Assembly (NCBI GenBank): GCA_945889545.1 | Contig: CAMDCC010000003.1 | Span: forward strand, 1-33,725 | Source: Bifidobacterium breve | GTDB lineage: Bacteria; Actinomycetota; Acidimicrobiia; IMCC26256; PALSA-555 | Direction: 5' to 3' | DNA: 33,725 nucleotides | Shown: positions 90 through 17,708 of the stretch, one piece after another | How the letters are laid out: every line of letters starts with the position of its first letter | Numbering within the stretch: the stretch's first letter is position 1 | Translations under genes and position numbers: made by a program | Notes under the pieces: model-generated | Database searches by the model: none | What the model was told of the DNA's origin: nothing | Seen by the model: only the letters and a program-made list of their open reading frames with translations

Positions 90-326
90 TTATGGACGAG
101 TTCTGCGAGCGACCCGGCCCGAGAACCGCCACGGGCCCCGGACCCGACCGACCCGGCGCGACACCAGCCGCGCCCCGCGCACCCACTCGTCGAGATGCGC
201 CTCCGCTTCTGGTGCGGCGTCGGTCGTACTGAACACCGCGACCGCAGCCACGATCGCCGCGACCTCCTCGTCGGACGCGTCGGGCGAGATGGCCCGAAGG
301 GTCGGTCCGCCACCTCGTGTGGTCAT
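90..326 (-). CDS. Acyl-CoA carboxylase epsilon subunit-like protein
   Basis: 78 aa; ASDEEVAAIVAAV helix and Trp/Arg-rich C-terminus; directly downstream of the carboxyltransferase beta gene. Confidence 0.75.
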   Translation of the reverse strand: MTTRGGGPTLRAISPDASDEEVAAIVAAVAVFSTTDAAPEAEAHLDEWVRGARLVSRRVGRVRGPWRFSGRVARRTRP

Positions 327-375
327 GACGTGGTCACTCCGGACGCGATGGACTCAACCCGGCGAAGCAACATGG

Positions 376-3024: not shown

Positions 3025-3682
3025 ATGGGTTGTGGAACTGGGCCACCGCCACGTACACACCGGTGCCACCCATCGACGTCGCGGTGCACGCCCCGCCGCC
3101 GTTCACGGCGCGGCTCAGGATCGAGTCCATGTTGGCCTTGTGACCCGGGCTGACCAGCCACGCGCTCACGGCGTGGCTGGCACCGAACGCGGGCGTGGGA
3201 CACGCGCCGGTCGAGAAGTAGAGGCAGTACAGGTTCTCCGACACCGACGTGGCGCTCGGGTACTGCTGGCGCAGGTTGGGGGTCGGGTTGTTGGAGGACC
3301 CGCTGTGGAACGAGGCGAGGGAGCTCTGGCACTGCGCCGGTGTGATCAGGGCGGCGATGCGCGCGGCCGTGCTCTGAGCGCTGGGACTCGTGGTGTCGAC
3401 GATGTACGACCGGTAGGTCAGGTGACACTGCTCGATCGCGATGGCGTGGGTGGCCCCGTTACAGCTCGGAGGGGCCGGCGCGGTCGTCGTCGTGGTGGTC
3501 GCCCGCGTCTTCTGGCCGACGTCCTCCGTTCCCCACCGATCCGCAGCCGCTGTGACTGCGCTCGCCTTCTGGGGAGCCGGCGCGGGCGTGGGCCCAGGGT
3601 TACACGCCGTGAGCACGATGGCAGCCGCAGGAACGAGGACGATCCCCGCGATCCAGCGTCGACGTCTGCTGCCGGTGGTCAT
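3023..3682 (-). CDS. Secreted lipoprotein with divergent CAP domain, paralog 2
   Basis: Start MTTGSRRRR with GGAGGAG RBS; lipobox LTAC; Thr/Pro linker; shares SSLASFH, SENLYC, SPGHKANMDSILS and GGTGVY...FHNP with paralog 1. Confidence 0.75.
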   Translation of the reverse strand: MTTGSRRRRWIAGIVLVPAAAIVLTACNPGPTPAPAPQKASAVTAAADRWGTEDVGQKTRATTTTTTAPAPPSCNGATHAIAIEQCHLTYRSYIVDTTSPSAQSTAARIAALITPAQCQSSLASFHSGSSNNPTPNLRQQYPSATSVSENLYCLYFSTGACPTPAFGASHAVSAWLVSPGHKANMDSILSRAVNGGGACTATSMGGTGVYVAVAQFHNP

Positions 3683-4203: not shown

Positions 4204-5553
4204 TCACGAGCCGTACCGGCGGAAGAGCGTGATCTTCGCCAGCAATCGCTCGCGCATCTCGGGGTCGGTCACACCGAGACCTTCTTCTGGTGCGTTCACG
4301 AGGATGCCGAGCTTGCCCTCGTGCTGGTTGTGATGCACCTGGAACGCAGCCTCGCCGGTGTCGTCGAGTGAGAACACCTTCGAGAGCGCCGGATGAATCC
4401 GGCCCTCGCACACGAGTCGGTTCGCTTCCCATGCTTCGCGGTAGTTCGCGTAGTGACAGCCCTTGAGCGTCTTCAGGTTCATCCAGAGATAGCGGTTGTC
4501 GAACTCGAGCATGAAGCCGCTCGTGGCCGCGCAGGTGATGATCATCCCGCCGCGCTTGGCCACGAACACCGACGCACCCATCGTCGAGCGACCTGGGTGC
4601 TCGAACACGATGTCGGGGTCGGTGCCTGTGAGCTCGCGGATCTTCTTGCCGAGGCGCAGCCACTCTTTCGGATCCTGGGTGTGCTCGTCGCTCCAGAACT
4701 TGTAGCCCTCGGCCTTGCGGTCGATGACGGCCTCGCACCCCATCTCGTTGAGGAGCGCGGCCTTCTCGGGCGACGAGACCACACCTACCGGGATGCCTCC
4801 GCCGTTCAGCACGTACTGCACCGCGTAGGCGCCGATTCCGCCGCTGGCACCCCAGATGAGCACGGTCTGGCCCTGCGTCATCTGCGAGCCGTTGGGGCTC
4901 ACGATCATGCGGTAGCTCGTGGAGTTGCACAGCGGGTTCACCGCCGACTCCTCCCATGTGAGGTGCGCCGGCTTCGGCATGAGCTGGTTGGCCTTGGCCA
5001 CCGCGATCTCGGCGAGTGCCCCGTAGTTCGTCTCGAAGCCCCAGATGCGCTGGCTGGTGGCCATCATCGAGTCGTCGTGCGCCGACGGATCCTGGTCGTC
5101 CACATAATTGGAGTGCACGGTCACGGCGTCGCCCGGCTTCCAGTTGCGCACCGCCGAGCCCACTCGCAAGACCACGCCGGCGGCGTCGGATCCGATCACG
5201 TGGAACGGCTGGTCGTGGCGCGCGCCCCACACGCTCTCCTTGGCGAGCCGCTTCAAGAAACCGAACGTGGGCAGCGGCTCGAAGATCGACGTCCACACGG
5301 TGTTGAAGTTGATCGACGACGCCATCACCGCCACGTACGCCTCGTCGGGCGCGAGTTCCGGAAGCGCGACATCGTCGACGTGGACCGACTTGCGCGGGTC
5401 CTTCTCCTCCGACGGGAGGTCGGCGAACATCTCCTGCTCGTCGGCCCGCACGACGGCGGCGCGAAACGAGGCCGGAAGCGGGAGTGCCGCGAGTTCCTCA
5501 GCGGGCGCGCCCTCGAGGATCGCAGTGCGGATGGCGTCCATCTCTTGGCTCAT
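4204..5553 (-). CDS. ccrA: Crotonyl-CoA carboxylase/reductase
   Basis: VMASSINFNTVW, HVIGSDAAGVV, IWGFETNYG, LIWGASGG, FEHPG, NRYLWM motifs. Confidence 0.95.
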   Translation of the reverse strand: MSQEMDAIRTAILEGAPAEELAALPLPASFRAAVVRADEQEMFADLPSEEKDPRKSVHVDDVALPELAPDEAYVAVMASSINFNTVWTSIFEPLPTFGFLKRLAKESVWGARHDQPFHVIGSDAAGVVLRVGSAVRNWKPGDAVTVHSNYVDDQDPSAHDDSMMATSQRIWGFETNYGALAEIAVAKANQLMPKPAHLTWEESAVNPLCNSTSYRMIVSPNGSQMTQGQTVLIWGASGGIGAYAVQYVLNGGGIPVGVVSSPEKAALLNEMGCEAVIDRKAEGYKFWSDEHTQDPKEWLRLGKKIRELTGTDPDIVFEHPGRSTMGASVFVAKRGGMIITCAATSGFMLEFDNRYLWMNLKTLKGCHYANYREAWEANRLVCEGRIHPALSKVFSLDDTGEAAFQVHHNQHEGKLGILVNAPEEGLGVTDPEMRERLLAKITLFRRYGS

Positions 5554-5636
5554 AGGGCCGACAGGCTATGCGTCAGCACAAGATCGGCGCCGAAGCGTGG
5601 TGCCGGGCGAGGGCCGAAACGCGGCACCATGGACCG

Positions 5637-6398
5637 ATGAACGGGACACCGGCGCACCGCCATGGCGTGTGGACCCACGAGCATCACCATCACGGTGCTC
5701 ATCGGCATGCCCGCTTGCCGTTCCGCTCCAAGACTCCGGGCGACGACCACGGGCATGTTCACGGCCATGGCCACACGCATGGCCGCGTCGATCCCTCGAT
5801 CATCCGGTCGCGCGCTGGGGTCCGAGCCGTCGCGATCAGCCTCGGCATCCTGGCAGCGACGGCCGCCCTCCAGGTGGTGGTGTTCATCAGCTCGGGGTCG
5901 GTGGCGCTGCTTGCCGACTTGATCCACAACACCGGCGACGCCCTCACGGCGTTGCCGCTCGGCGCGGCCTTCCTGCTGCGAAGCCGACGGGCGGAGCGCT
6001 GGTCTGGGTATGCCGTCGTCGTGATGATCCTCGTCTCGGCGTTGGTGGCCGCGTACGAGGCCGTCGACCGCTTGATCGATCCTCGGAAGCTCGACCATCT
6101 GTGGGCCCTTGCCGCCGCCGGGGTCGTGGGGTTCATCGGCAACGAGCTCGCCGCACAAGTTCGACTCCGCGCCGGGCGACGCCTCGACAGCCCCGCCCTC
6201 ATGGCCGACGGCGCGCATGCCCGCGTCGACGGCTACGTCTCGCTCGGCGTGGTCGCCAGTGCCGGAGTCGTCGCCGCGGGTTGGGAAGCCGGCGATCCGA
6301 TCATCGGCTTGGCCATCACCGCGGTGATCCTGCGCATCACGTGGCAAGCGTGGCGGACCGTGCGCGCCGACCACGACGATCACGATCACGCACACTGA
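5637..6398 (+). CDS. Cation diffusion facilitator (CDF) family metal transporter, His-rich, lacking the C-terminal cytoplasmic domain
   Basis: SGSVALLADLIHNTGD and ALMADGAHARVD metal-site motifs; His-rich N-terminus and tail; start could be 5568. Confidence 0.88.
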   Translation: MNGTPAHRHGVWTHEHHHHGAHRHARLPFRSKTPGDDHGHVHGHGHTHGRVDPSIIRSRAGVRAVAISLGILAATAALQVVVFISSGSVALLADLIHNTGDALTALPLGAAFLLRSRRAERWSGYAVVVMILVSALVAAYEAVDRLIDPRKLDHLWALAAAGVVGFIGNELAAQVRLRAGRRLDSPALMADGAHARVDGYVSLGVVASAGVVAAGWEAGDPIIGLAITAVILRITWQAWRTVRADHDDHDHAH

Positions 6399-6433
6399 CC
6401 CACGTTCCGATTCACGCGCGGTATGTTGACCGC

Positions 6434-6490
6434 ACTCCCCCCGCCTTCCTGGACGCTTCGGCTTGACCTGGAATGGCGGGGCTTTTCGTT
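6434..6490 (+). ncRNA. Candidate small structured RNA, copy 1
   Basis: TATGTT -10 at 6422-6427, A at +7, CCCCGCC...GGCGGGG stem with internal GC-TTCG-GC, then CTTTTCGTT; homologous to 7707-7763. Confidence 0.4.
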
Positions 6491-6502
6491 GCAGGACAGG
6501 AC

Positions 6503-6560
6503 GCGAAACGGCCCCCCGAAGGGGGCCGTCTAACCAGGGATGCGCTCCCTGGCGAGGTAC
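6503..6560 (-). ncRNA. Candidate small RNA divergent from the NYN gene
   Basis: Minus strand: TATCAT -10 (6567-6572), hairpin CCAGGGA-GCGCA-TCCCTGG, then terminator ACGGCCCCC-TTCG-GGGGGCCGT-TTC. Confidence 0.45.
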
Positions 6561-6611
6561 GTAGAAATGATACCCAGGTAATCGGCCCGAAATCCACCCC
6601 TCTGGAGCACA

Positions 6612-7220
6612 GTGGAACGCGTAATCGCATACATCGACGGGCTGAACGTGTACCACGGCCTCTGCGACAAGAAGCTTCGGAAGTTCTTGTGGCTGGACTT
6701 GGTGGCACTCGTCGAAAGCCTGCTGAAGCCGCAGCAGCAACTGAGAGAGACGAAGTACTTCACGGCGCGAGTCTCGATTCCCCCCGACAAGGTGCGCCGT
6801 CAGAGCATCTACATCGACGCACTGACGGCCTGCGGTGTCCACGTCATCGAGGGCAAGTTCCAGGACTCCAAGATCAAATGCAATCGGTGCGGGCGGGTGT
6901 GGAGCGATCATGAAGAGAAGCAGACGGACGTCAACATCGCGGTGGCGATGATGACCGATGCTCATCTCGACCTCTTCGACGTTGCGCTGCTGATCTCCGG
7001 GGACAGCGACCTCTCGCCCCCAACTCGCAGAATTCCTGAACTGCACCCAGGCAAGCGCATCGTCGTCGCGAGCCCGCCGGGGCGGCACTCACTCGATCTG
7101 GCCCATGCTGCCGGCGCGTCCTTCATCATTTCGGCAAACAAGGTGCGCAAGGCTCAGTTTCCGCCCGAAGTCACCACAGCGTCGGGCCATATCCTGCGAC
7201 GCCCACCGGTCTGGGGGTAG
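6612..7220 (+). CDS. NYN-domain (LabA/DUF88, PIN-like fold) ribonuclease
   Basis: YIDGLNVY, EEKQTDVNIA, LISGDSDL catalytic Asp motifs; CNRC insertion; GGAG RBS before GTG. Confidence 0.9.
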   Translation: MERVIAYIDGLNVYHGLCDKKLRKFLWLDLVALVESLLKPQQQLRETKYFTARVSIPPDKVRRQSIYIDALTACGVHVIEGKFQDSKIKCNRCGRVWSDHEEKQTDVNIAVAMMTDAHLDLFDVALLISGDSDLSPPTRRIPELHPGKRIVVASPPGRHSLDLAHAAGASFIISANKVRKAQFPPEVTTASGHILRRPPVWG

Positions 7221-7270
7221 TGGCTCAGTTTTGATCGAGCCTCAGCACGAGCAAGGCCCCTCCGATCTCG

Positions 7271-7564
7271 CTATCCGACGAGGTTCTCCGGCGGGCCGTC
7301 ACGACGCCTTGCAAGTTCCTTGGCGAACATGGATTTCTCATCCTGGGATGTCGACTGGTACGCCGCGTTTGAGGCATAGCGCCGGCTCACTACTAGCGCC
7401 GCGCAGCGCTCGACGCCGCCCGCCCAGCCGCTGACATACGGCGTCGTTTCAGAATCCCTGATCTTTTCAGAATCCCCGGGAAGAGCCAACACCACAATCC
7501 CGGCGACGATCACCAGGGCAAGGAGCCCCAGAACGATCGAACGGAACCTGTGATCGGAGGCCAT
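7271..7564 (-). CDS. Hypothetical single-TM protein, possibly degenerate (MASDHRFRSIVLGLLALVIVAGIVVLALPG...)
   Basis: 97 aa from the internal Met of ORF 7271..8215; strong N-terminal hydrophobic helix. Confidence 0.4.
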   Translation of the reverse strand: MASDHRFRSIVLGLLALVIVAGIVVLALPGDSEKIRDSETTPYVSGWAGGVERCAALVVSRRYASNAAYQSTSQDEKSMFAKELARRRDGPPENLVG

Positions 7565-7706
7565 CGGAGCCACTACACCACGCGTTCGGCTTCGTAGCCC
7601 GTCAGTCCAGAAGCACCGCGATCCCCGGAGGTCAAGACCTCCGCCGCGGCAAACCTGAGCCGGTACCCGTCTGGGCTCATCAGGCTCCACGACGTAGAGT
7701 GAGATC

Positions 7707-7763
7707 ATTCGTCTCTGCCTTCTGGACGCCTCGGCTGTCCTGGGATGGCGGGGCTTTTCGTTT
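7707..7763 (+). ncRNA. Candidate small structured RNA, copy 2
   Basis: TAGAGT -10 at 7695-7700, A at +7; 7717-7770 matches 6443-6498 at 49/56 aligned columns, including identical ATGGCGGGGCTTTTCGTT. Confidence 0.4.
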
Positions 7764-7776
7764 CGGGACACGCGGT

Positions 7777-7819
7777 GACGACGCGCGTTGCAGTCGTCGC
7801 ACGACCATGACGCGTCGTC
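7777..7819. repeat. Imperfect palindrome (REP-like)
   Basis: GACGACGCG...CGCGTCGTC arms with inner GTCGT-CGC-ACGAC hairpin. Confidence 0.5.
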
Positions 7820-7906
7820 GGCGACGCTGACCTTCTGGCTAGAGCCAAGCGGGTGATGGTTCTGTACGATCCACCCACACCATTCCGCGCCTGAAAGGCA
7901 GCCTCG

Positions 7907-9091
7907 ATGCCCGGCTCCGTCATCGTCTCGACGGCCCGCACTCCCATCGGCAAGCTCTCCGGCGCGCTCGCGTCGATGAGCGCCATGGACCTCGGCGGTG
8001 TCGCCATCAAGGCCGCGCTCGAGCGCGGCGGCGTCGGCCCTGAGCAGGTCGACTACGTGATCATGGGTCAGGTGCTCGGCGCGGGCCAAGGGCAGATCAC
8101 CGCGCGCCAAGCCGCGGCAAACGCGGGCATCCCGATGACCGTTCCCGCGCTCACCGTGAACAAGGTGTGCTTGTCGGGCATGAACGCGATCTACCTCGCC
8201 GATCAGATGGTGCAAGCTGGCGACGCCGAAGTGGTGGTGTGCGGTGGCATGGAGTCGATGACGAACGCGCCGTACCTGCTGCCCGGCGCGCGCGCCGGCC
8301 TGCGCATGGGCAACTCGGAGATTGTCGACTCACTCATCCAAGACGGTCTGTGGTGCGCGTTCGACGCGGTGCACATGGGCACCGGCACCGAGAAGTACGT
8401 GGGCGAGTTCGGTGGTCTCACCCGCGAGCTCATGGACGACGCCGCGGCCAAGAGCCACGAGCGCGCCGCCGCCGCGGCCAAGGAAGGCCGCTTCGCCGAC
8501 GAGATCACGCCGGTCGCGATCCCCCAGCGCAAGGGCGACCCAATCATGTTCGAGGTGGATGAGGGCGTCCGCCCGGAGACCACCACCGAGTCGCTCGGCG
8601 CCCTGCGCCCGGCGTTCGGCAAGGAGGGCGCGATCACGGCCGGCAACGCCTCGCAGATCTCCGATGGCGGCGCCGCCCTGGTGGTCACCAGCACCGAGAA
8701 GGCCGAGGAGCTGGGGCTCACGCCCATCGCCGAGCTCGTGAGCTTCGGCATGGTGGCCGGGCCCGACACCTCGCTGCTCACCCAGCCCTCGCGGGCGATC
8801 AAGCGGGCGCTCGAGCAGATCGACAAGCCCGTTTCGGCCATCGACCTCTTCGAGCTGAACGAAGCGTTCGCTGCGGTCGGGCTGGCGGCGATGAAGGACC
8901 TCGGCATCTCCGACGACGTCGTCAACGTGAACGGCGGCGCGATCGCGCTCGGTCACCCGATCGGCATGTCGGGTGCGCGCCTGGTCATCACGCTCGTCAA
9001 CGAGCTGCGCCGACGGGGCGCGTCGCTCGGCGCCGCAGCATTGTGCGGTGGCGGCGGTCAAGGCGACGCCGCGATCGTGCGCGCGCTGTAA
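7907..9091 (+). CDS. Acetyl-CoA C-acetyltransferase (thiolase)
   Basis: NKVCLSG, GGMESM, TAGNASQISDG, ELNEAFA, NVNGGAIALGHPIG, LCGGGGQG motifs. Confidence 0.95.
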   Translation: MPGSVIVSTARTPIGKLSGALASMSAMDLGGVAIKAALERGGVGPEQVDYVIMGQVLGAGQGQITARQAAANAGIPMTVPALTVNKVCLSGMNAIYLADQMVQAGDAEVVVCGGMESMTNAPYLLPGARAGLRMGNSEIVDSLIQDGLWCAFDAVHMGTGTEKYVGEFGGLTRELMDDAAAKSHERAAAAAKEGRFADEITPVAIPQRKGDPIMFEVDEGVRPETTTESLGALRPAFGKEGAITAGNASQISDGGAALVVTSTEKAEELGLTPIAELVSFGMVAGPDTSLLTQPSRAIKRALEQIDKPVSAIDLFELNEAFAAVGLAAMKDLGISDDVVNVNGGAIALGHPIGMSGARLVITLVNELRRRGASLGAAALCGGGGQGDAAIVRAL

Positions 9092-11256: not shown

Positions 11257-11298
11257 TTACGCGTTGACCTCGCGACGACCTTCGAACGCGCGGCCGAG
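11257..11298 (-). repeat. Displaced copy of the recR 3' end (direct repeat of 12756-12797)
   Basis: 38/42 nt identical; encodes [13 protein letters not shown] versus rec[14 protein letters not shown]. Confidence 0.9.
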
Positions 11299-12724: not shown

Positions 12725-12767
12725 ACGCGTCGACTACGCGTCGACTACGCGTCGACTACGCGTCGAC
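12725..12767. repeat. 11-bp tandem repeat ACGCGTCGACT x4 over the recR stop codon
   Basis: Copies at 12725, 12736, 12747 and 12758. Confidence 0.95.
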
Positions 12768-13361
12768 CTCGCGGCGTCCTTCGAACGCGCGGCCGAGCGT
12801 GACCTCGTCGGCGTACTCGAGATCCCCCCCGACCGGCAGGCCACTCGCGATGCGGGTGATGCGAATGCCGAGCGGCTTGAGCACCTTCGCCACGTACATT
12901 GCCGTGGTCTCGCCTTCGATGTTGGGGTTCGTAGCGAGGATCACCTCTTGCACACCTTCTTCCCCGACGCGCCGGACGAGCTCCTTCACGCGGAGCTGTT
13001 CCGGTCCGATCCCCTCGATGGGTGAGATGGCGCCCTGGAGCACGTGATACCGACCGTGAAACTCGTGGGTGCGCTCGACCGCGACGATGTCGGGCGCTTC
13101 CTGGACCACGCACAACAGCGAGGGGTCGCGGCGATCGTCGCGGCAGAACGTGCACAGCTCGCCTTCGGCCATGTTGAAACAGCGCCGACACCACGTGATG
13201 CGGGCCTTGGCCTCGGTGATGGCCTTGGCCAGACGGTTGGCGTCTTCGGGGGCGACCTTCAGCAGGTAGAACGCGACGCGCTGCGCCGACTTCGGGCCGA
13301 TGCCCGGAAGCCGACCGAGCTCGTCGATGAGCGTTTGTACTGGTCCTTCATGCAGCGCCAC
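12756..13361 (-). CDS. recR: Recombination mediator RecR
   Basis: [12 protein letters not shown]4 zinc finger, [38 protein letters not shown]. Confidence 0.97.
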
Positions 13362-13762: not shown

Positions 13763-15655
13763 TCACGTGCCCGCGCCGCGCGGGACCTCTTCGACGACGG
13801 TAGCGCCGAGCTGTTGCTCTAACAGGGTGACGGTCGTGGGTGCACCGTCCGGGACGTCGGTGTTCAGTGAGAGGTCGATGTCGGCGATCTCCTCCATCTC
13901 GGGGGATTCGTCGCTGAACGGCTCGACCGGATGAGACGGCGGATCAGACAGTGGATCAGATGGCGGGTCGGGCGGAGGCGCCGAAGGCATCGCATCGGCT
14001 GCGGGCGGCTGCCCGCCGCTGAGTGCGAACTCGTCGGCCGGCTCGAGGTTGAAACGGACCGTGCGCCCCAGACGGTGTGCGAGCGCAGCGCGAATGGTGT
14101 CGGCTTCCTTCTTGAAGCGCGGTTTCGCCGCTTCGATCATCGCCGGCGGTACGCCAAAGACCACGACGTCGTCGTCGACCCGAAGCGGTTGTGCGTTCTG
14201 CACCGCGCTGCGCGTGGCAACCGGGAGCTCCGGCAGGATCGCGCTCCACGCCACGATCACATCGTCGACCTCGAGCGGCGTGGTGGGCGCCTCGGGCTTC
14301 GGGTCCGGTGCGGGTTCCGGCTCAGGCTCAGGCTCGGGTTCCGGCGCCGGGTCGGTTGGCGCCTCGGCCGCTTCAGCCCGCAGCGCGCCCAGCGTTCGGC
14401 GCGGCGACGGTGCGGTGCCGCCTTCCGGCGGAGCGGTGCCCGATGGTGCGGTGCCCATCGACCGGGCCGGTGACCGAGTCGGCACTGGCGTGTCGCCGCC
14501 GGCCATCGCGCGCTCGAGCCGCTCGATGCGCTCGACCACGGTTTGGAGCGGCGGGCCCGCGTCGCGCCGACTGAGTCGCACGAGCGCTACTTCGAGCACG
14601 AGGCGCGGATCCGCGGCCTCAGTGCCCCGCATGTCGGTGACAGCCTGTCCGAGCGTCTCGATCACGCGCACCAGCGCGGCGTTGCCGAGCGCGAGGCCGA
14701 GCTCACGCAAACGCTCCTGCTCTGCTTCCGGCGCGTCGACCCGCACGCGACCAGCACCGGCCGTGAGGAGGAACGCGTCTCGTGCCGTCGCGAGGAGATT
14801 CTCGGCGGCGCGGCGGGGCTCGTGACCAGCTTCGAGCAGCTCACCGAGAGCTACGAGCGCACCGGGCGAGTCTTCGCCGGCAATCGCTTCGAGGATGCGC
14901 ACCCGCAAGGGGAACGGTGCACCACCGAACAGAGCCGCGACCGCTTCGGCCTCGAGCGGGCCGGTCTCGTGCGCGAGGACCTGATCGAGCAGCGACTCTG
15001 CGTCGCGGGCCGAGCCCGCGCCGGCCGCGGCGATCACCTCGAGCGCTTCTGGGTCGGCCTTCACGCCCTCGCGGCTGCAGAGATCGCCGAGGCGTTGTAC
15101 GAGCTGATCGACAGACAGGAGGGTGAACTCGAAGTGCTGGGTGCGCGACCGGATCGTCGGCAGCACCTTCTCCGGGTTTGTGGTGGCCAGCACGAACACC
15201 ACGTGACTCGGCGTCTCCTCCAACGTCTTGAGCAACGCATTGGCCGCCGGGTCGGTGAGCATGTGGACCTCGTCGAGCACGTACACCTTCGTGCGGGACG
15301 CGGCACCCATCCCGAGCGTGGAGCTCTCGATCACGTCGCGGATGTTGTCGATACCCCGGTTCGACGCAGCATCGAGCTCGAAGAAATCAAGGAAACGACC
15401 CGCCGAGATCGCCGTGCAGTTCTCGCACTCACCGCACGGCTCGCCCTCGGACCCGAGGTTCGTGCAGTTCAGTGCCTTCGCAAGGATGCGCGCGGTGGTG
15501 GTCTTGCCGGTTCCGCGTGGCCCCGAGAACAGGTAGGCGTGCCCGACGCGCTCGTCGCGCACCGCATTGCGCAACCCAGTCGTGACGTGCTCCTGGCCCA
15601 CGAGCTCATCAAAGCGCTGCGGCCGGTACTTCCGATAGAGGGATTGGTACGCCAC
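13763..15655 (-). CDS. dnaX: DNA polymerase III subunit gamma/tau
   Basis: GTG start VAYQSLYRKYRP; GPRGTGKTT Walker A, ELDAASNRG, DEVHML, TIRSR. Confidence 0.96.
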   Translation of the reverse strand: MAYQSLYRKYRPQRFDELVGQEHVTTGLRNAVRDERVGHAYLFSGPRGTGKTTTARILAKALNCTNLGSEGEPCGECENCTAISAGRFLDFFELDAASNRGIDNIRDVIESSTLGMGAASRTKVYVLDEVHMLTDPAANALLKTLEETPSHVVFVLATTNPEKVLPTIRSRTQHFEFTLLSVDQLVQRLGDLCSREGVKADPEALEVIAAAGAGSARDAESLLDQVLAHETGPLEAEAVAALFGGAPFPLRVRILEAIAGEDSPGALVALGELLEAGHEPRRAAENLLATARDAFLLTAGAGRVRVDAPEAEQERLRELGLALGNAALVRVIETLGQAVTDMRGTEAADPRLVLEVALVRLSRRDAGPPLQTVVERIERLERAMAGGDTPVPTRSPARSMGTAPSGTAPPEGGTAPSPRRTLGALRAEAAEAPTDPAPEPEPEPEPEPAPDPKPEAPTTPLEVDDVIVAWSAILPELPVATRSAVQNAQPLRVDDDVVVFGVPPAMIEAAKPRFKKEADTIRAALAHRLGRTVRFNLEPADEFALSGGQPPAADAMPSAPPPDPPSDPLSDPPSHPVEPFSDESPEMEEIADIDLSLNTDVPDGAPTTVTLLEQQLGATVVEEVPRGAGT

Positions 15656-15749
15656 GGGGCGACTGTATCTACCAAGCGAGCACCCGGATCCATGCCCAGG
15701 CATGCGGCGCCGGAGGCGCTCGCCAGGGAGCGAGCGAGTAGAGAAGTAC

Positions 15750-16020
15750 GGACCGTGCACCCTCCGTCGACCCGAGCACGCCGCGGAACGGTTTCCCGAC
15801 GTAGCTCAGGTCAGGCTTGCCTGCGGCACACAGAACCTTCCGCTGAGAGCTGCTTCCTTCCGGACCTGACTCGGTTCGCGGGATTCCGTTGCGCAGGACC
15901 CGACCCTCAACGCCACGTTGGGACCGATCATGCGGCGGCCCGTTCCTCGGAAGGGGATTCAGCCCCCCATACGTGGATTTGGGGTACAGGGCACCACGAG
16001 CTCCCCACCTAGCACGGTCC
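15750..16020 (-). ncRNA. ffs: Signal recognition particle RNA, large (Alu-domain) type, about 271 nt
   Basis: Helix-8 motif GTCAGGTCCGGAAGGAAGCAGC; 5' GGACCGTGC pairs with 3' GCACGGTCC; 5' region GGGGAG...GGTGCCCTGTACC resembles Bacillus scRNA; upstream of dnaX. Confidence 0.92.
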
Positions 16021-16061
16021 GCGCTGCGAGCGTATCCGGGCCACGTACGATCGCCATCCCG

Positions 16062-16149
16062 GGAGGGATGCGAGAGCGGCCGAATCGGCACGCTTGGAAA
16101 GCGTGTGTGGGGCAACTCACCGTGGGTTCGAATCCCACTCCCTCCGCCA
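16062..16149 (+). tRNA. tRNA-Ser(GGA)
   Basis: GGAGGGA/TCCCTCC acceptor, CACGC-TTGGAAA-GCGTG anticodon arm, long variable arm, GTTCGAATC, G73 + CCA. Confidence 0.97.
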
Positions 16150-16623
16150 ATGGATCTGGATCAGCGATTCGAGCTCATGGGGATTGCGCTCGATGAAGCG
16201 CGCGGCGCATTGGCGCATGACGACGTGCCTGTCGGTGCTTTGGTGTTTGACGTTGGTTCTGGGGAGGTCATCGCGCGGCGGCACAACGAGCGGGAGGCCA
16301 GCTCGGATCCGACTGCGCATGCTGAGGTGTTGGCGCTTCGGGATGCTGCTGCTGCTCGCGGCATGTGGCGGTTGGACGGGTGCGCGCTCGTTGTCACGTT
16401 GGAGCCGTGCCCGATGTGTGCGGGAGCCGCAGTTGCCGCGCGACTCGACTGCGTGGTGTTCGGTGCGGCCGATCCGAAGGCTGGCGCGATGGGATCGCTC
16501 TACAACCTGGGTGCCGATCCTCGACTCAACCACGAGCTCGAAGTGGTCGGTGGCGTACGTGGCGAAGAGTGCGCCGAGCTGCTCAGCACCTTCTTCGCCA
16601 CGCGTCGCACCGCTCGGGACTAG
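16150..16623 (+). CDS. tadA: tRNA adenosine(34) deaminase
   Basis: DVPVGA, DPTAHAE, TLEPCPMCAGA, FGAADPKAGA, RLNH; alternative start at 16177. Confidence 0.93.
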   Translation: MDLDQRFELMGIALDEARGALAHDDVPVGALVFDVGSGEVIARRHNEREASSDPTAHAEVLALRDAAAARGMWRLDGCALVVTLEPCPMCAGAAVAARLDCVVFGAADPKAGAMGSLYNLGADPRLNHELEVVGGVRGEECAELLSTFFATRRTARD

Positions 16624-16709
16624 CCCTGGAAGGCGCCACATGACGCGAGGTGGCGGAGGTCGCAGATCACTTCGGAGAGTTCCCGCGACGACCCCGTACA
16701 ATCGGCCGG

Positions 16710-16797
16710 GGAGGGGTGCGAGAGCGGCCGACTCGGATGGTCTCGAAAACCATTGTGGCGCAAGTCACCGTGGGTTCAAATCCCACCCCCTCCGCCA
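16710..16797 (+). tRNA. tRNA-Ser(CGA)
   Basis: GGAGGGG/CCCCTCC acceptor, ATGGT-CTCGAAA-ACCAT anticodon arm, variable arm, GTTCAAATC, CCA; TACAAT -10 at 16697-16702. Confidence 0.97.
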
Positions 16798-16826
16798 AGA
16801 GCCCCGGGTACGCCCGGGGCTCTTTC
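16798..16826 (+). terminator. Intrinsic terminator, probably bidirectional (tRNA / metF)
   Basis: AGAGCCCCGGG-TACG-CCCGGGGCTCT-TT. Confidence 0.85.
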
Positions 16827-16853
16827 GCGTCCCGTTACAAGCCCGCGCCCGCG

Positions 16854-17708
16854 CTAGAGGCCCAGGTTCGTGTGGATCTCTCGGGTCGCGTTGGAGCGAT
16901 TCATTGTGTAGAAGTGCAGGCCGGGTGCGCCACCGTCGAGGAGCTCGCGGCAGAGCTTCGTCGCCTCGTCGATGCCGATCTTGCGCACCGCGTCGGGGTC
17001 GTCTTCCACCGCATGCAATTTCGTCATGAACCACTCGGGGAACTCGGAGCCCTGCATCTCGGCCATGCGCTTTGTGCCGGCCAGGCTGAGCACCGGCAAG
17101 ATCCCGGGGATCACCGGCTTGTCCACGCCGAGCGCTCGCAATGAGTTGATGAGATCGAAGTAGTGGGCAGCGTCGAAGAAGAACTGGGTGATCGCGAAGT
17201 CGGCCTCCGCGAGCTTCTCCGCGGTGTGGCGTCGATCGCTCTCGAGATCGGGCGACTGCGGATGCGGTTCAGGGTGAGCGGCCACACCCACGCTGAAGTC
17301 GCCCACCTCTCGGATGAGCCGAACCAGATCGATCGCGTAGTCGAGGTCGCCGGGGGGGAGGTCGAGATCCTTCGGCGGATCACCGCGGAGCGCGAGCAGG
17401 TTCTCGATCCCAGCTTCCTGGTAGCGCTCGATGATGTCGACGAGCTCGGCGCGGGTGTGCGCAGCGCAGGTGATGTGGGCCATCGCGGTCATCGACGTCT
17501 CGCGGTCGATGCGCGTCACGATCTCGTGGGTTCTCTCCCGGGTGGAACCGCCGGCGCCATACGTGACCGACACGTACGACGGTGCGAGTGGCTCCAGGTC
17601 CACGAGGGTTTGCTCGAGCACGAGCATCGCCTCGTCGGTGCGCGGCGGGCCGAACTCAAAGGAGATCGTCCGCTCGCCGTGCGCCAGAATTTCACCGATT
17701 TTGGTCAT
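16854..17708 (-). CDS. metF: Methylenetetrahydrofolate reductase
   Basis: SFEFGPP, SVTYGAGGSTR, LALRGDPP, AITQFFFD, GLHFYTMNR. Confidence 0.95.
   Translation of the reverse strand: MTKIGEILAHGERTISFEFGPPRTDEAMLVLEQTLVDLEPLAPSYVSVTYGAGGSTRERTHEIVTRIDRETSMTAMAHITCAAHTRAELVDIIERYQEAGIENLLALRGDPPKDLDLPPGDLDYAIDLVRLIREVGDFSVGVAAHPEPHPQSPDLESDRRHTAEKLAEADFAITQFFFDAAHYFDLINSLRALGVDKPVIPGILPVLSLAGTKRMAEMQGSEFPEWFMTKLHAVEDDPDAVRKIGIDEATKLCRELLDGGAPGLHFYTMNRSNATREIHTNLGL

Follow-up and report, generated by a model that had tools for sequence, protein, structure and literature searches.

The locus described here raises the question of why an intact gene for a NYN ribonuclease should be enclosed by two copies of a small-RNA-like unit, with no recognisable protein antitoxin at its side. 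It lies in a 33,725-nucleotide stretch of DNA (contig CAMDCC010000003.1 of assembly GCA_945889545.1, positions 1 to 33,725, hereafter the window), from a genome that GTDB places in the class Acidimicrobiia. A preliminary description had suggested that the bracketing repeats, here called RNA A, form an RNA-controlled module with the enclosed ribonuclease, here called NYN-A, or else act as recombination boundaries of a cassette. Our comparative analysis confirmed what had been observed there and partly supported the interpretation, and the corrected picture is broader than the one proposed. A second small RNA, RNA B, had been overlooked; it lies on the minus strand between the first copy of A and the nuclease gene. 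Comparison of many loci makes RNA B the likely partner of NYN-A, while RNA A accompanies a different NYN subfamily, NYN-B. On balance we favour, with modest confidence, reading the locus as a small acquired islet of RNA-plus-nuclease modules in which NYN-A is paired with B, A is the dedicated neighbour of NYN-B, and the cassette recombined at A.

The NYN-A gene is indeed intact, as had been claimed. Its product matches the Pfam family NYN (PF01936) over residues 4–172 (46.1 bits against a cut-off of 24.2; E 9.3e-12), and no other Pfam family was found in it. The PADLOC profile HEC-09 (PDLC04163) matches residues 1–201 with profile positions 1–202 of 203 (E 8.5e-81). In an alignment of 23 relatives (A2), residues D9, D106, D131, D133, C90 and C93 are invariant. 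The family as a whole has about 203 residues and a CxxC insert, and it yielded 1426 matches at E ≤1e-5. It is rare in the taxonomic family of the genome studied here, where 2 of 42 other genomes hold a relative, both distant. A search of NCBIfam gave no name, and among solved structures sequence gave a weak match to 2qip only. A terminator-like site lies at the end of the gene (7211–7228). NYN relatives about 33% identical occur on many small ColE1-type plasmids (about 4.2 kb) of Klebsiella and Escherichia; RNA B was not found in the one small Klebsiella plasmid with a 33%-identical NYN that was checked.

The association of RNA B with this nuclease was followed through 80 genome loci of NYN-A relatives from many phyla. 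Iterated nhmmer searches place B beside the gene in 76 of them, and addition of its covariance model (R2; the model of RNA A is R1) raises the count to 78. The two loci without B are L073, with only 112 nt of upstream sequence, and L103, which gave no scored match. B stands divergently upstream of the nuclease gene in 72 of the 78 loci, co-oriented upstream in three and downstream in three, and its 5' end is a median of about 64 nt from the NYN-A start, an offset derived from the aligned segment. It is single in 70 loci and present in two to four tandem copies in the other eight. Such arrays are seen at L117 (3154–3547, four copies) and at L106 (2244–2441, three copies); in L106 the copies abut and leave no space for promoters of their own, which implies one common precursor like that of the antitoxin arrays of type III systems. 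Searching from the RNA side, R2 gave five matches in 150 other genomes of the phylum, three of which abut NYN-A. Two plasmids, one of Thermus oshimai (63.9 bits) and one of Streptomyces (41.2 bits), likewise have B immediately next to NYN-A. In L049, an Acidimicrobiaceae metagenome-assembled genome whose NYN is 57% identical, B is 94% identical over 50 nt and carries one compensatory change, from A:U to G:C.

These loci bear directly on the interpretation first offered, in which the bracketing A RNAs would be antitoxins or controllers of the enclosed NYN-A. The arrangement itself invites that reading, since the A copies flank the gene, and A is an independent unit of promoter, hairpin and terminator that is tied to NYN genes generally. 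Across the 80 NYN-A loci, however, R1 never exceeds 24 bits (the two best matches, at about 23 bits, lie 1.9–2.3 kb from the gene), the place beside the gene is held by B in 78, and A goes with NYN-B in 14 of 14 loci. Control of NYN-A by the A copies is thus highly improbable in our view. The general idea of a NYN ribonuclease paired with a small RNA holds up in the comparative data; the choice of A as the partner of this particular nuclease does not.

RNA B itself has the features of a transcribed and structured molecule. R2 scores 56.2 bits at this locus and finds no other copy in the genome, and the fold of −37.3 kcal/mol is well below that of shuffled sequence (z −4.51). In an alignment of 88 copies, 96.1% of cells are paired, 16 of 17 pairs show compensatory changes, and covariation reaches 0.564 against 0.207 in shuffled alignments, none of 500 of which did as well; slid controls gave 37–53% paired. 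B is assigned to the strand opposite NYN in most loci because of the G.U pairs at the base of helix 2 (61 of 87 rows), the promoter boxes and the trailing U-run, GUUUCUUUU, after its second hairpin. The boxes are of the TTGACA/TAnnnT type, or TAnnTTTG-like in loci titled Bacteroidota, and the TATCAT of the window lines up with the TACAAT of L049 and with the −10-like boxes of alignment A6. Both the pentaloop (U/G-N-G-Y-A) and the linker are conserved. Rfam 15 gave no match at gathering score at B in the window or in 20 other loci. RNA B is thus a well-supported family of structured RNAs, found across many phyla and lacking from Rfam 15.

A Hammerhead type II match (RF02276) at 6501–6565 falls below threshold (20.3 bits against 37; E 0.42). 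The CUGANGA core is absent from the sequence, and the promoter, terminator and G.U evidence places the RNA on the other strand; this and a sub-threshold isrB match at B reflect the hairpin layout only. A B-like RNA with an atypical loop (46.8 bits) was also seen at about 1501–1565 of L137 (G542:C34), in a prophage-like region by an excisionase-like open reading frame (ORF), with no NYN-A detected by tblastn within 1.5 kb.

The two bracketing repeats were found as described at the outset. When 6430–6500 was compared by BLAST with the whole assembly (341 contigs, 2.84 Mb, 80% complete), only the query itself and 7717–7770 were recovered, the latter with 88% identity over query positions 14–69, that is, the same 49 of 56 columns by which 6443–6498 and 7717–7770 had been matched. 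The boxes TATGTT and TAGAGT, each with an A seven bases downstream, are present in the sequence, and both copies fold into a long imperfect hairpin closed by GGCGGGG and followed by CTTTTCGTT. A strict sigma-70 scan found no promoter at A or B; the boxes cited here are weaker matches that are kept in position. For copy 2, the plus-strand fold is the more stable one (−23.3 against −13.5 kcal/mol on the minus strand), and its outer-stem G.U pairs work on the plus strand only. Taken alone, the two hairpins are not stabler than shuffled sequence (z −1.28 and −1.18), so the case for function rests on relatives. No Rfam 15 family matched either copy at gathering score.

The same genome speaks against a dispersed repeat. 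A 23-nt core pattern, allowed up to three mismatches, matches only the two A sites (its reversed control matches none), and R1 adds a single 17-bit match with E 0.54. With A present twice and B once in 2.84 Mb, a repeat of the repetitive extragenic palindrome or terminator type was rejected. A coding reading was also considered, as translation from the ATG in GGAATGGCGGGG would give MAGLF..., in the frame of NYN-B in two genomes, G015 and G411; it was set aside, since pairing of the 5' arm, compensatory changes and differing frames in the window all favour RNA.

What RNA A does accompany emerged from wider searches. BLAST of 60 close relatives returned nothing better than E 0.012, the two best matches lying inside coding sequence, and a weak match in G015 proved to be the same arrangement of A followed by NYN-B. 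A loose A pattern run over 401 genomes of the class added one genome, in which A stands directly before a NYN-B gene; the reversed pattern gave two matches. When the search started from the protein, NYN-B, a subfamily distinct from the window gene, was found in 14 of the 401 genomes, and R1 places an A-type hairpin beside it in all 14: directly upstream on the same strand in 12, where A ends 10–45 nt before the NYN-B start, and convergent just past the stop in two. The covariance model thereby linked A to NYN-B and not to NYN-A, and the motif, far from being scattered without nuclease linkage, occurs twice in this genome and beside NYN-B wherever NYN-B was found in the class. A search of 150 genomes with R1 gave four non-self matches, three abutting NYN-B and one facing an integrase-like ORF, known from its translation only, and an ORF of unknown kind. 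In metagenomes, a stricter pattern scan yielded 21 loci, of which 11 hold a true A copy (R1 above 35 bits), eight are chance matches in coding sequence (four of them identical) and two are unclear; NYN-B lies within 1.5 kb of six of the true copies.

Twenty-six distinct A copies, in an alignment fitted to the model, show 93.1% of cells paired and compensatory changes in 12 of 18 pairs, which none of 500 shuffles equalled. The sequence of the outer stem hardly varies, and compensatory changes occur at L162 and L172. Of 25 copies, 21 have a TANNNT box 16–21 nt ahead of the stem, and a TTGACN −35 element is often present as well. In 12 of the 14 NYN-B loci the layout is promoter, RNA, terminator and nuclease gene. 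Most genes around NYN-B are housekeeping genes, and a few loci have a recombinase, a setting typical of small selfish modules. RNA A is a second structured RNA family, so far seen only in the class of the window and in metagenomes.

Several observations stand beside this family. In the metagenome loci L142 and L158, A lies 85–170 nt upstream of a CRISPR-associated gene of the Cas_GSU0053 family; A is not exclusive to NYN genes, and it may head other defence genes. In L048 (G015:C53), a 28-codon hydrophobic ORF (245–331, minus strand) runs opposite to A and NYN-B, some 170 nt upstream of them; it may encode a small membrane peptide or have arisen by chance. In the window, the copies of A may be relics. 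NYN-B proteins begin with ..TRVAVFIDYQN right after RNA A, and A copy 2 is followed by a GTG, codons for TTRVAVV and then a stop; this 11-codon ORF, too short for statistics, is suggestive only as the remains of a NYN-B gene.

Two further accounts would spare both RNAs any action on a protein. In the first, A and B are ordinary intrinsic terminators or insulators against read-through from an inserted cassette. Both do end in a GC hairpin and a U-run, and in the window A copy 1 and B stand tail to tail between the cation-efflux and NYN genes. A conserved promoter box precedes each of them, however; B has a second, non-terminator hairpin with its conserved pentaloop and linker, sequence conservation reaches across phyla, the linkage is specific to NYN genes, and each RNA occurs only once or twice in the genome. 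This is the least probable of the explanations weighed here, and we give it very little credence. In the second, the RNAs act in cis only: A would be an attenuator leader of NYN-B, possibly cleaved by NYN-B in an autoregulatory loop, and B would work by promoter interference or as an antisense to a long NYN-A leader. The spacing is in keeping with such roles, as the short gap between A and NYN-B in 12 of 14 loci leaves no space for another promoter and the closeness of B to the NYN-A start means that the two promoters must overlap. Against them are the loci in which A is convergent to NYN-B (L140, L170, L173) or downstream of it (L158), and those in which B lies downstream of NYN-A (three) or in tandem arrays (eight), which misfit a pure leader or promoter interference. 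Purely cis action is unlikely, although it deserves more weight than plain termination. Since the small RNA gene is flexible in position but always close to its NYN subfamily, each pair behaves as a two-component module.

The module in the window is lacking from a same-genus genome, G004. There, the cation-efflux gene (90% identical) and the thiolase gene (98%) are adjacent, and the short spacer between them holds no copy of the RNA A motif. By blastn against the corresponding locus (L035, G004:C46), window positions 6363–6404 align with 2320–2361 and 7835–7950 with 2363–2477; homology ends at 6404 and starts again at 7835, and therefore a 1430-nt islet that includes both A copies is present here and absent in G004. 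Across it, GC content falls to 0.58–0.65 from about 0.70, and the hexamer CTGACC at 6395–6400 is repeated at 7827–7832. Pieces of the locus occur on DNA contigs of three separate studies, two of which span the junction between the efflux gene and A copy 1. A joint seen in one run (X2), which skips 6388–8008 and has 21 nt on one side, is unreliable.

A pair of metagenome loci from one data set suggests how the bracket came about. L158 reads A, NYN-B, A, Cas_GSU0053, and L142 reads A, Cas_GSU0053. The left flank with A is 94% identical between them and A with the right flank 80%, the insert is 1.15 kb, and the duplicated segment in L158 is exactly the transcribed A. The window has an L158-like shape, with A copy 1, then B, NYN-A and the membrane-protein ORF, then A copy 2. 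In L140 and L181, genes for tyrosine integrases lie about 0.6–0.8 kb from the 3' end of A and point to it (in L181 this is known from ORF translation only). The bracket thus probably arose by recombination at A. A circular cassette would have recombined Campbell-style within a resident A gene, duplicating A, and the resident NYN-B would later have been lost from the window locus. The notion of the repeats as cassette boundaries, voiced in the preliminary description, gains support from the L158 and L142 pair; the empty site of G004 has no A, so that this account does not extend to the first arrival of A at this spot.

Some integrative islands target tRNA or tmRNA genes. The A bracket resembles them, and integron attC sites, in that a structured RNA gene is duplicated at both cassette ends and integrases face the 3' end of A in two loci. 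It differs in that A is not a tRNA, judging from the lack of an Rfam match at A (the ARAGORN run covered 15500–17100 only), and in that no integrase lies within the islet. The attC core GTTRRRY is absent from the window sequence read, and an integron attC was rejected.

It may be asked whether A acts mainly in this way, as a DNA attachment or recombination site for small cassettes, like tRNA genes for islands, with its link to NYN genes a matter of cargo. The exact duplication of A around the 1.15-kb NYN-B insert, the bracket in this window, the integrases pointing to A in L140 and L181 and the near-invariant outer stem speak for such a site. The following do not suit it: 12 of the 14 NYN-B loci have one upstream A and no second copy in the locus, the neighbours are mostly housekeeping genes without a recombinase, the empty site of G004 holds no A, and the promoter and terminator signals together with the compensatory changes at L162 and L172 indicate a transcribed RNA. 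A role mainly as a DNA site is possible, though we lean away from it, and it is compatible with the favoured reading of paired RNA and nuclease modules.

Under that favoured reading, a working scheme can be proposed. B, a small RNA of about 60 nt, would have a promoter of its own that faces away from NYN-A, and its transcription would stop at a terminator hairpin that likewise belongs to it. Each RNA would be made in excess and would bind its NYN partner through the parts conserved in sequence, namely the pentaloop and linker of B and the invariant outer stem of A. Binding would hold the ribonuclease inactive, or else the enzyme would prefer the RNA as its substrate. Were the RNA to disappear, as could happen once phage infection halts transcription, the nuclease would be set free, following the logic of type III toxin-antitoxin and abortive-infection systems. 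A and B would in this scheme be RNA antitoxins or regulators, a role that is plausible.

The closest comparison is with the type III toxin-antitoxin systems (ToxIN, CptIN, TenpIN; AbiQ), in which an endoribonuclease is likewise encoded beside a small non-coding RNA, and in which that RNA binds the toxic protein directly and so neutralises it. PMC5086642 defines them genetically by a promoter, an RNA, a Rho-independent terminator and a nuclease gene, the terminator keeping the RNA in excess of the toxin, and A with NYN-B fits this layout in 12 of 14 loci. Further likenesses are the tandem arrays of two to four B copies in some loci and the occurrence of the NYN modules as small, patchy islets, also on plasmids. 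The nuclease differs, being NYN/PIN-like and outside the ToxN, CptN and TenpN families described there (PMC5086642), from which its Pfam family sets it apart. The RNAs differ too, as A is a single hairpin and B mostly single, whereas a type III antitoxin is an array of short tandem repeats cut into monomers by the toxin, and B is divergent from NYN-A in most loci, this window included. In AbiF-type abortive infection, too, the activity of a defence or toxin protein is reported to be under the control of a small RNA beside it (PMC12373285); that protein belongs to a different family.

PADLOC lists HEC-09 as a candidate defence system of a single gene (Payne et al., bioRxiv 10.1101/2024.01.29.577857). 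According to that preprint, its NYN domain is like that of MARF1 and shares three conserved aspartates. NYN-A matches the profile end to end, and the equivalent acidic residues are invariant in alignment A2. The preprint treats the system as protein-only, and its main text does not contain the terms non-coding, ncRNA, small RNA or intergenic (10.1101/2024.01.29.577857). The window gene also differs in its setting, between the cation-efflux transporter and thiolase genes and not embedded in an Hma system. A full-text literature search returned no paper tying NYN genes to a dedicated small RNA, and the main text of Weinberg et al. 2017 has no mention of NYN, LabA or DUF88.

Several points weigh against the favoured reading and are best taken together. 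The existence of both RNAs, their binding to NYN proteins and their neutralising action are predictions. With B divergent from NYN-A in 72 of 78 loci, that pair departs from the operon layout of type III systems; most loci have no tandem-repeat array of either RNA; and single hairpin RNAs with terminators could serve as leaders or insulators. HEC-09 cloned with its native promoter region gave no protection against any phage tested, according to the preprint (10.1101/2024.01.29.577857). Two of the five matches to B found from the RNA side, L137 (prophage-like) and the weak L139, lack a NYN-A gene within 1.5 kb. Of the 11 true copies of A in metagenomes, five are without NYN-B over the same distance and precede a Cas_GSU0053 gene, an HNH-like ORF or an ORF of unknown kind, and in the window A has no NYN-B partner, the genome having no NYN-B at all. 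The Campbell model is built on one occupied and empty pair, L158 and L142, and on this window, and the empty site of G004 has no copy of A. The sole RNA library with part of the locus holds one 155-nt contig at 7017–7162, inside the NYN gene, plus short stray pieces, and is uninformative on the small RNAs. A bolder form of the reading, in which two sister NYN families, one of them distributed over many bacterial phyla and plasmids, are each locked to their own structured RNA and make up a new class of RNA-protein toxin-antitoxin or defence systems, similar in logic to type III systems though with an unrelated nuclease fold and a hairpin RNA free of repeats, and the A gene doubles as a cassette recombination site, appears to us somewhat doubtful.

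The features of the locus are collected in Table 1. The gene order runs from the dehydrogenase and cation-efflux genes through RNA A copy 1, a perfect GC hairpin, the NYN gene, the 97-aa membrane ORF and RNA A copy 2 to the thiolase gene.

Table 1. Positions of the genes, RNAs and promoter-like boxes in and around the islet
Feature	Position	Strand	Remarks
Crotonyl-CoA-reductase-like dehydrogenase	4204–5553	minus	
Cation-efflux (CDF) protein gene	5568–6398		before RNA A copy 1
Islet, 1430 nt	6405–7834		present here, absent from same-genus genome G004 (blastn and spacer reading)
−10-like box TATGTT of RNA A copy 1	6422–6427	plus	A at 6434 is the likely start; −35 poor
RNA A copy 1	6439–6499	plus	long imperfect hairpin (CCCCGCC...GGCGGGG) and U-rich tail CUUUUCGUU; R1 81.5 bits
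RNA B	6497–6559	minus	5' tail, 8-bp hairpin with pentaloop GCGCA, linker, GC-rich terminator hairpin, GUUUC tail
−10-like box TATCAT of RNA B	6567–6572	minus	putative; 7 nt before aligned 5' end
NYN-A ribonuclease gene, 202 aa	6612–7220	plus	intact, CxxC insert, HEC-09 type
97-aa ORF, N-terminal membrane helix	7271–7564	minus	cargo; GC by codon position 0.64/0.49/0.72
−10-like box TAGAGT of RNA A copy 2	7695–7700	plus	A at 7707
RNA A copy 2	7713–7771	plus	R1 71.4 bits; two G.U pairs in outer stem
11-codon ORF VTTRVAVVARP, then stop	7775–7810	plus	possible stub of a lost NYN-B gene
Thiolase gene	7907–9091		after RNA A copy 2

The enclosed membrane ORF, correctly reported at the outset, has no match in Pfam, PADLOC or NCBIfam. 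As a conserved partner of the nuclease it was rejected: its one homologue is 65% identical, and the 80 NYN-A loci do not contain it. In the window, the cation-efflux gene ends in a short Asp/His tail, unlike that of G004, whose end (about 2266–2345 of L035) is a run of GACGAACGC-type repeats encoding a tail rich in Asp, Glu and Arg. Farther along the window, a gene for a large signal recognition particle (SRP) RNA (15753–16017, minus strand) is followed by two tRNA-Ser genes on the plus strand (16062–16149 and 16710–16797), with anticodons GGA and CGA; the tRNA genes share 82% identity and lie 648 nt apart, and the whole group resembles ordinary housekeeping RNA genes. Two further direct repeats, 2312–2493 with 3081–3262 (182 nt, 75%) and 11258–11298 with 12757–12797 (41 nt, 93%), probably fall inside paralogous coding sequence.

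The window has revealed two families of small RNAs associated with NYN genes, one of which extends across many phyla with strong covariation and is absent from Rfam. Its findings point to a widespread and so far undescribed module of RNA plus nuclease, which may work like a toxin-antitoxin or phage-defence pair. HEC-09-type NYN proteins are a candidate phage-defence family that was inactive when tested as a protein-only system; if almost all of its members come with an RNA partner, the functional unit as now drawn is incomplete, and the tests as well as the mechanism call for a fresh look. Cultured carriers include Thermus oshimai JL-2, Asanoa iriomotensis, Arcticibacter pallidicorallinus and Aquirufa antheringensis. 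Should the RNAs turn out to act as antitoxins, a new nuclease fold would join the range of RNA-antitoxin systems, and two natural, specific pairs of RNA and ribonuclease would become available for study.

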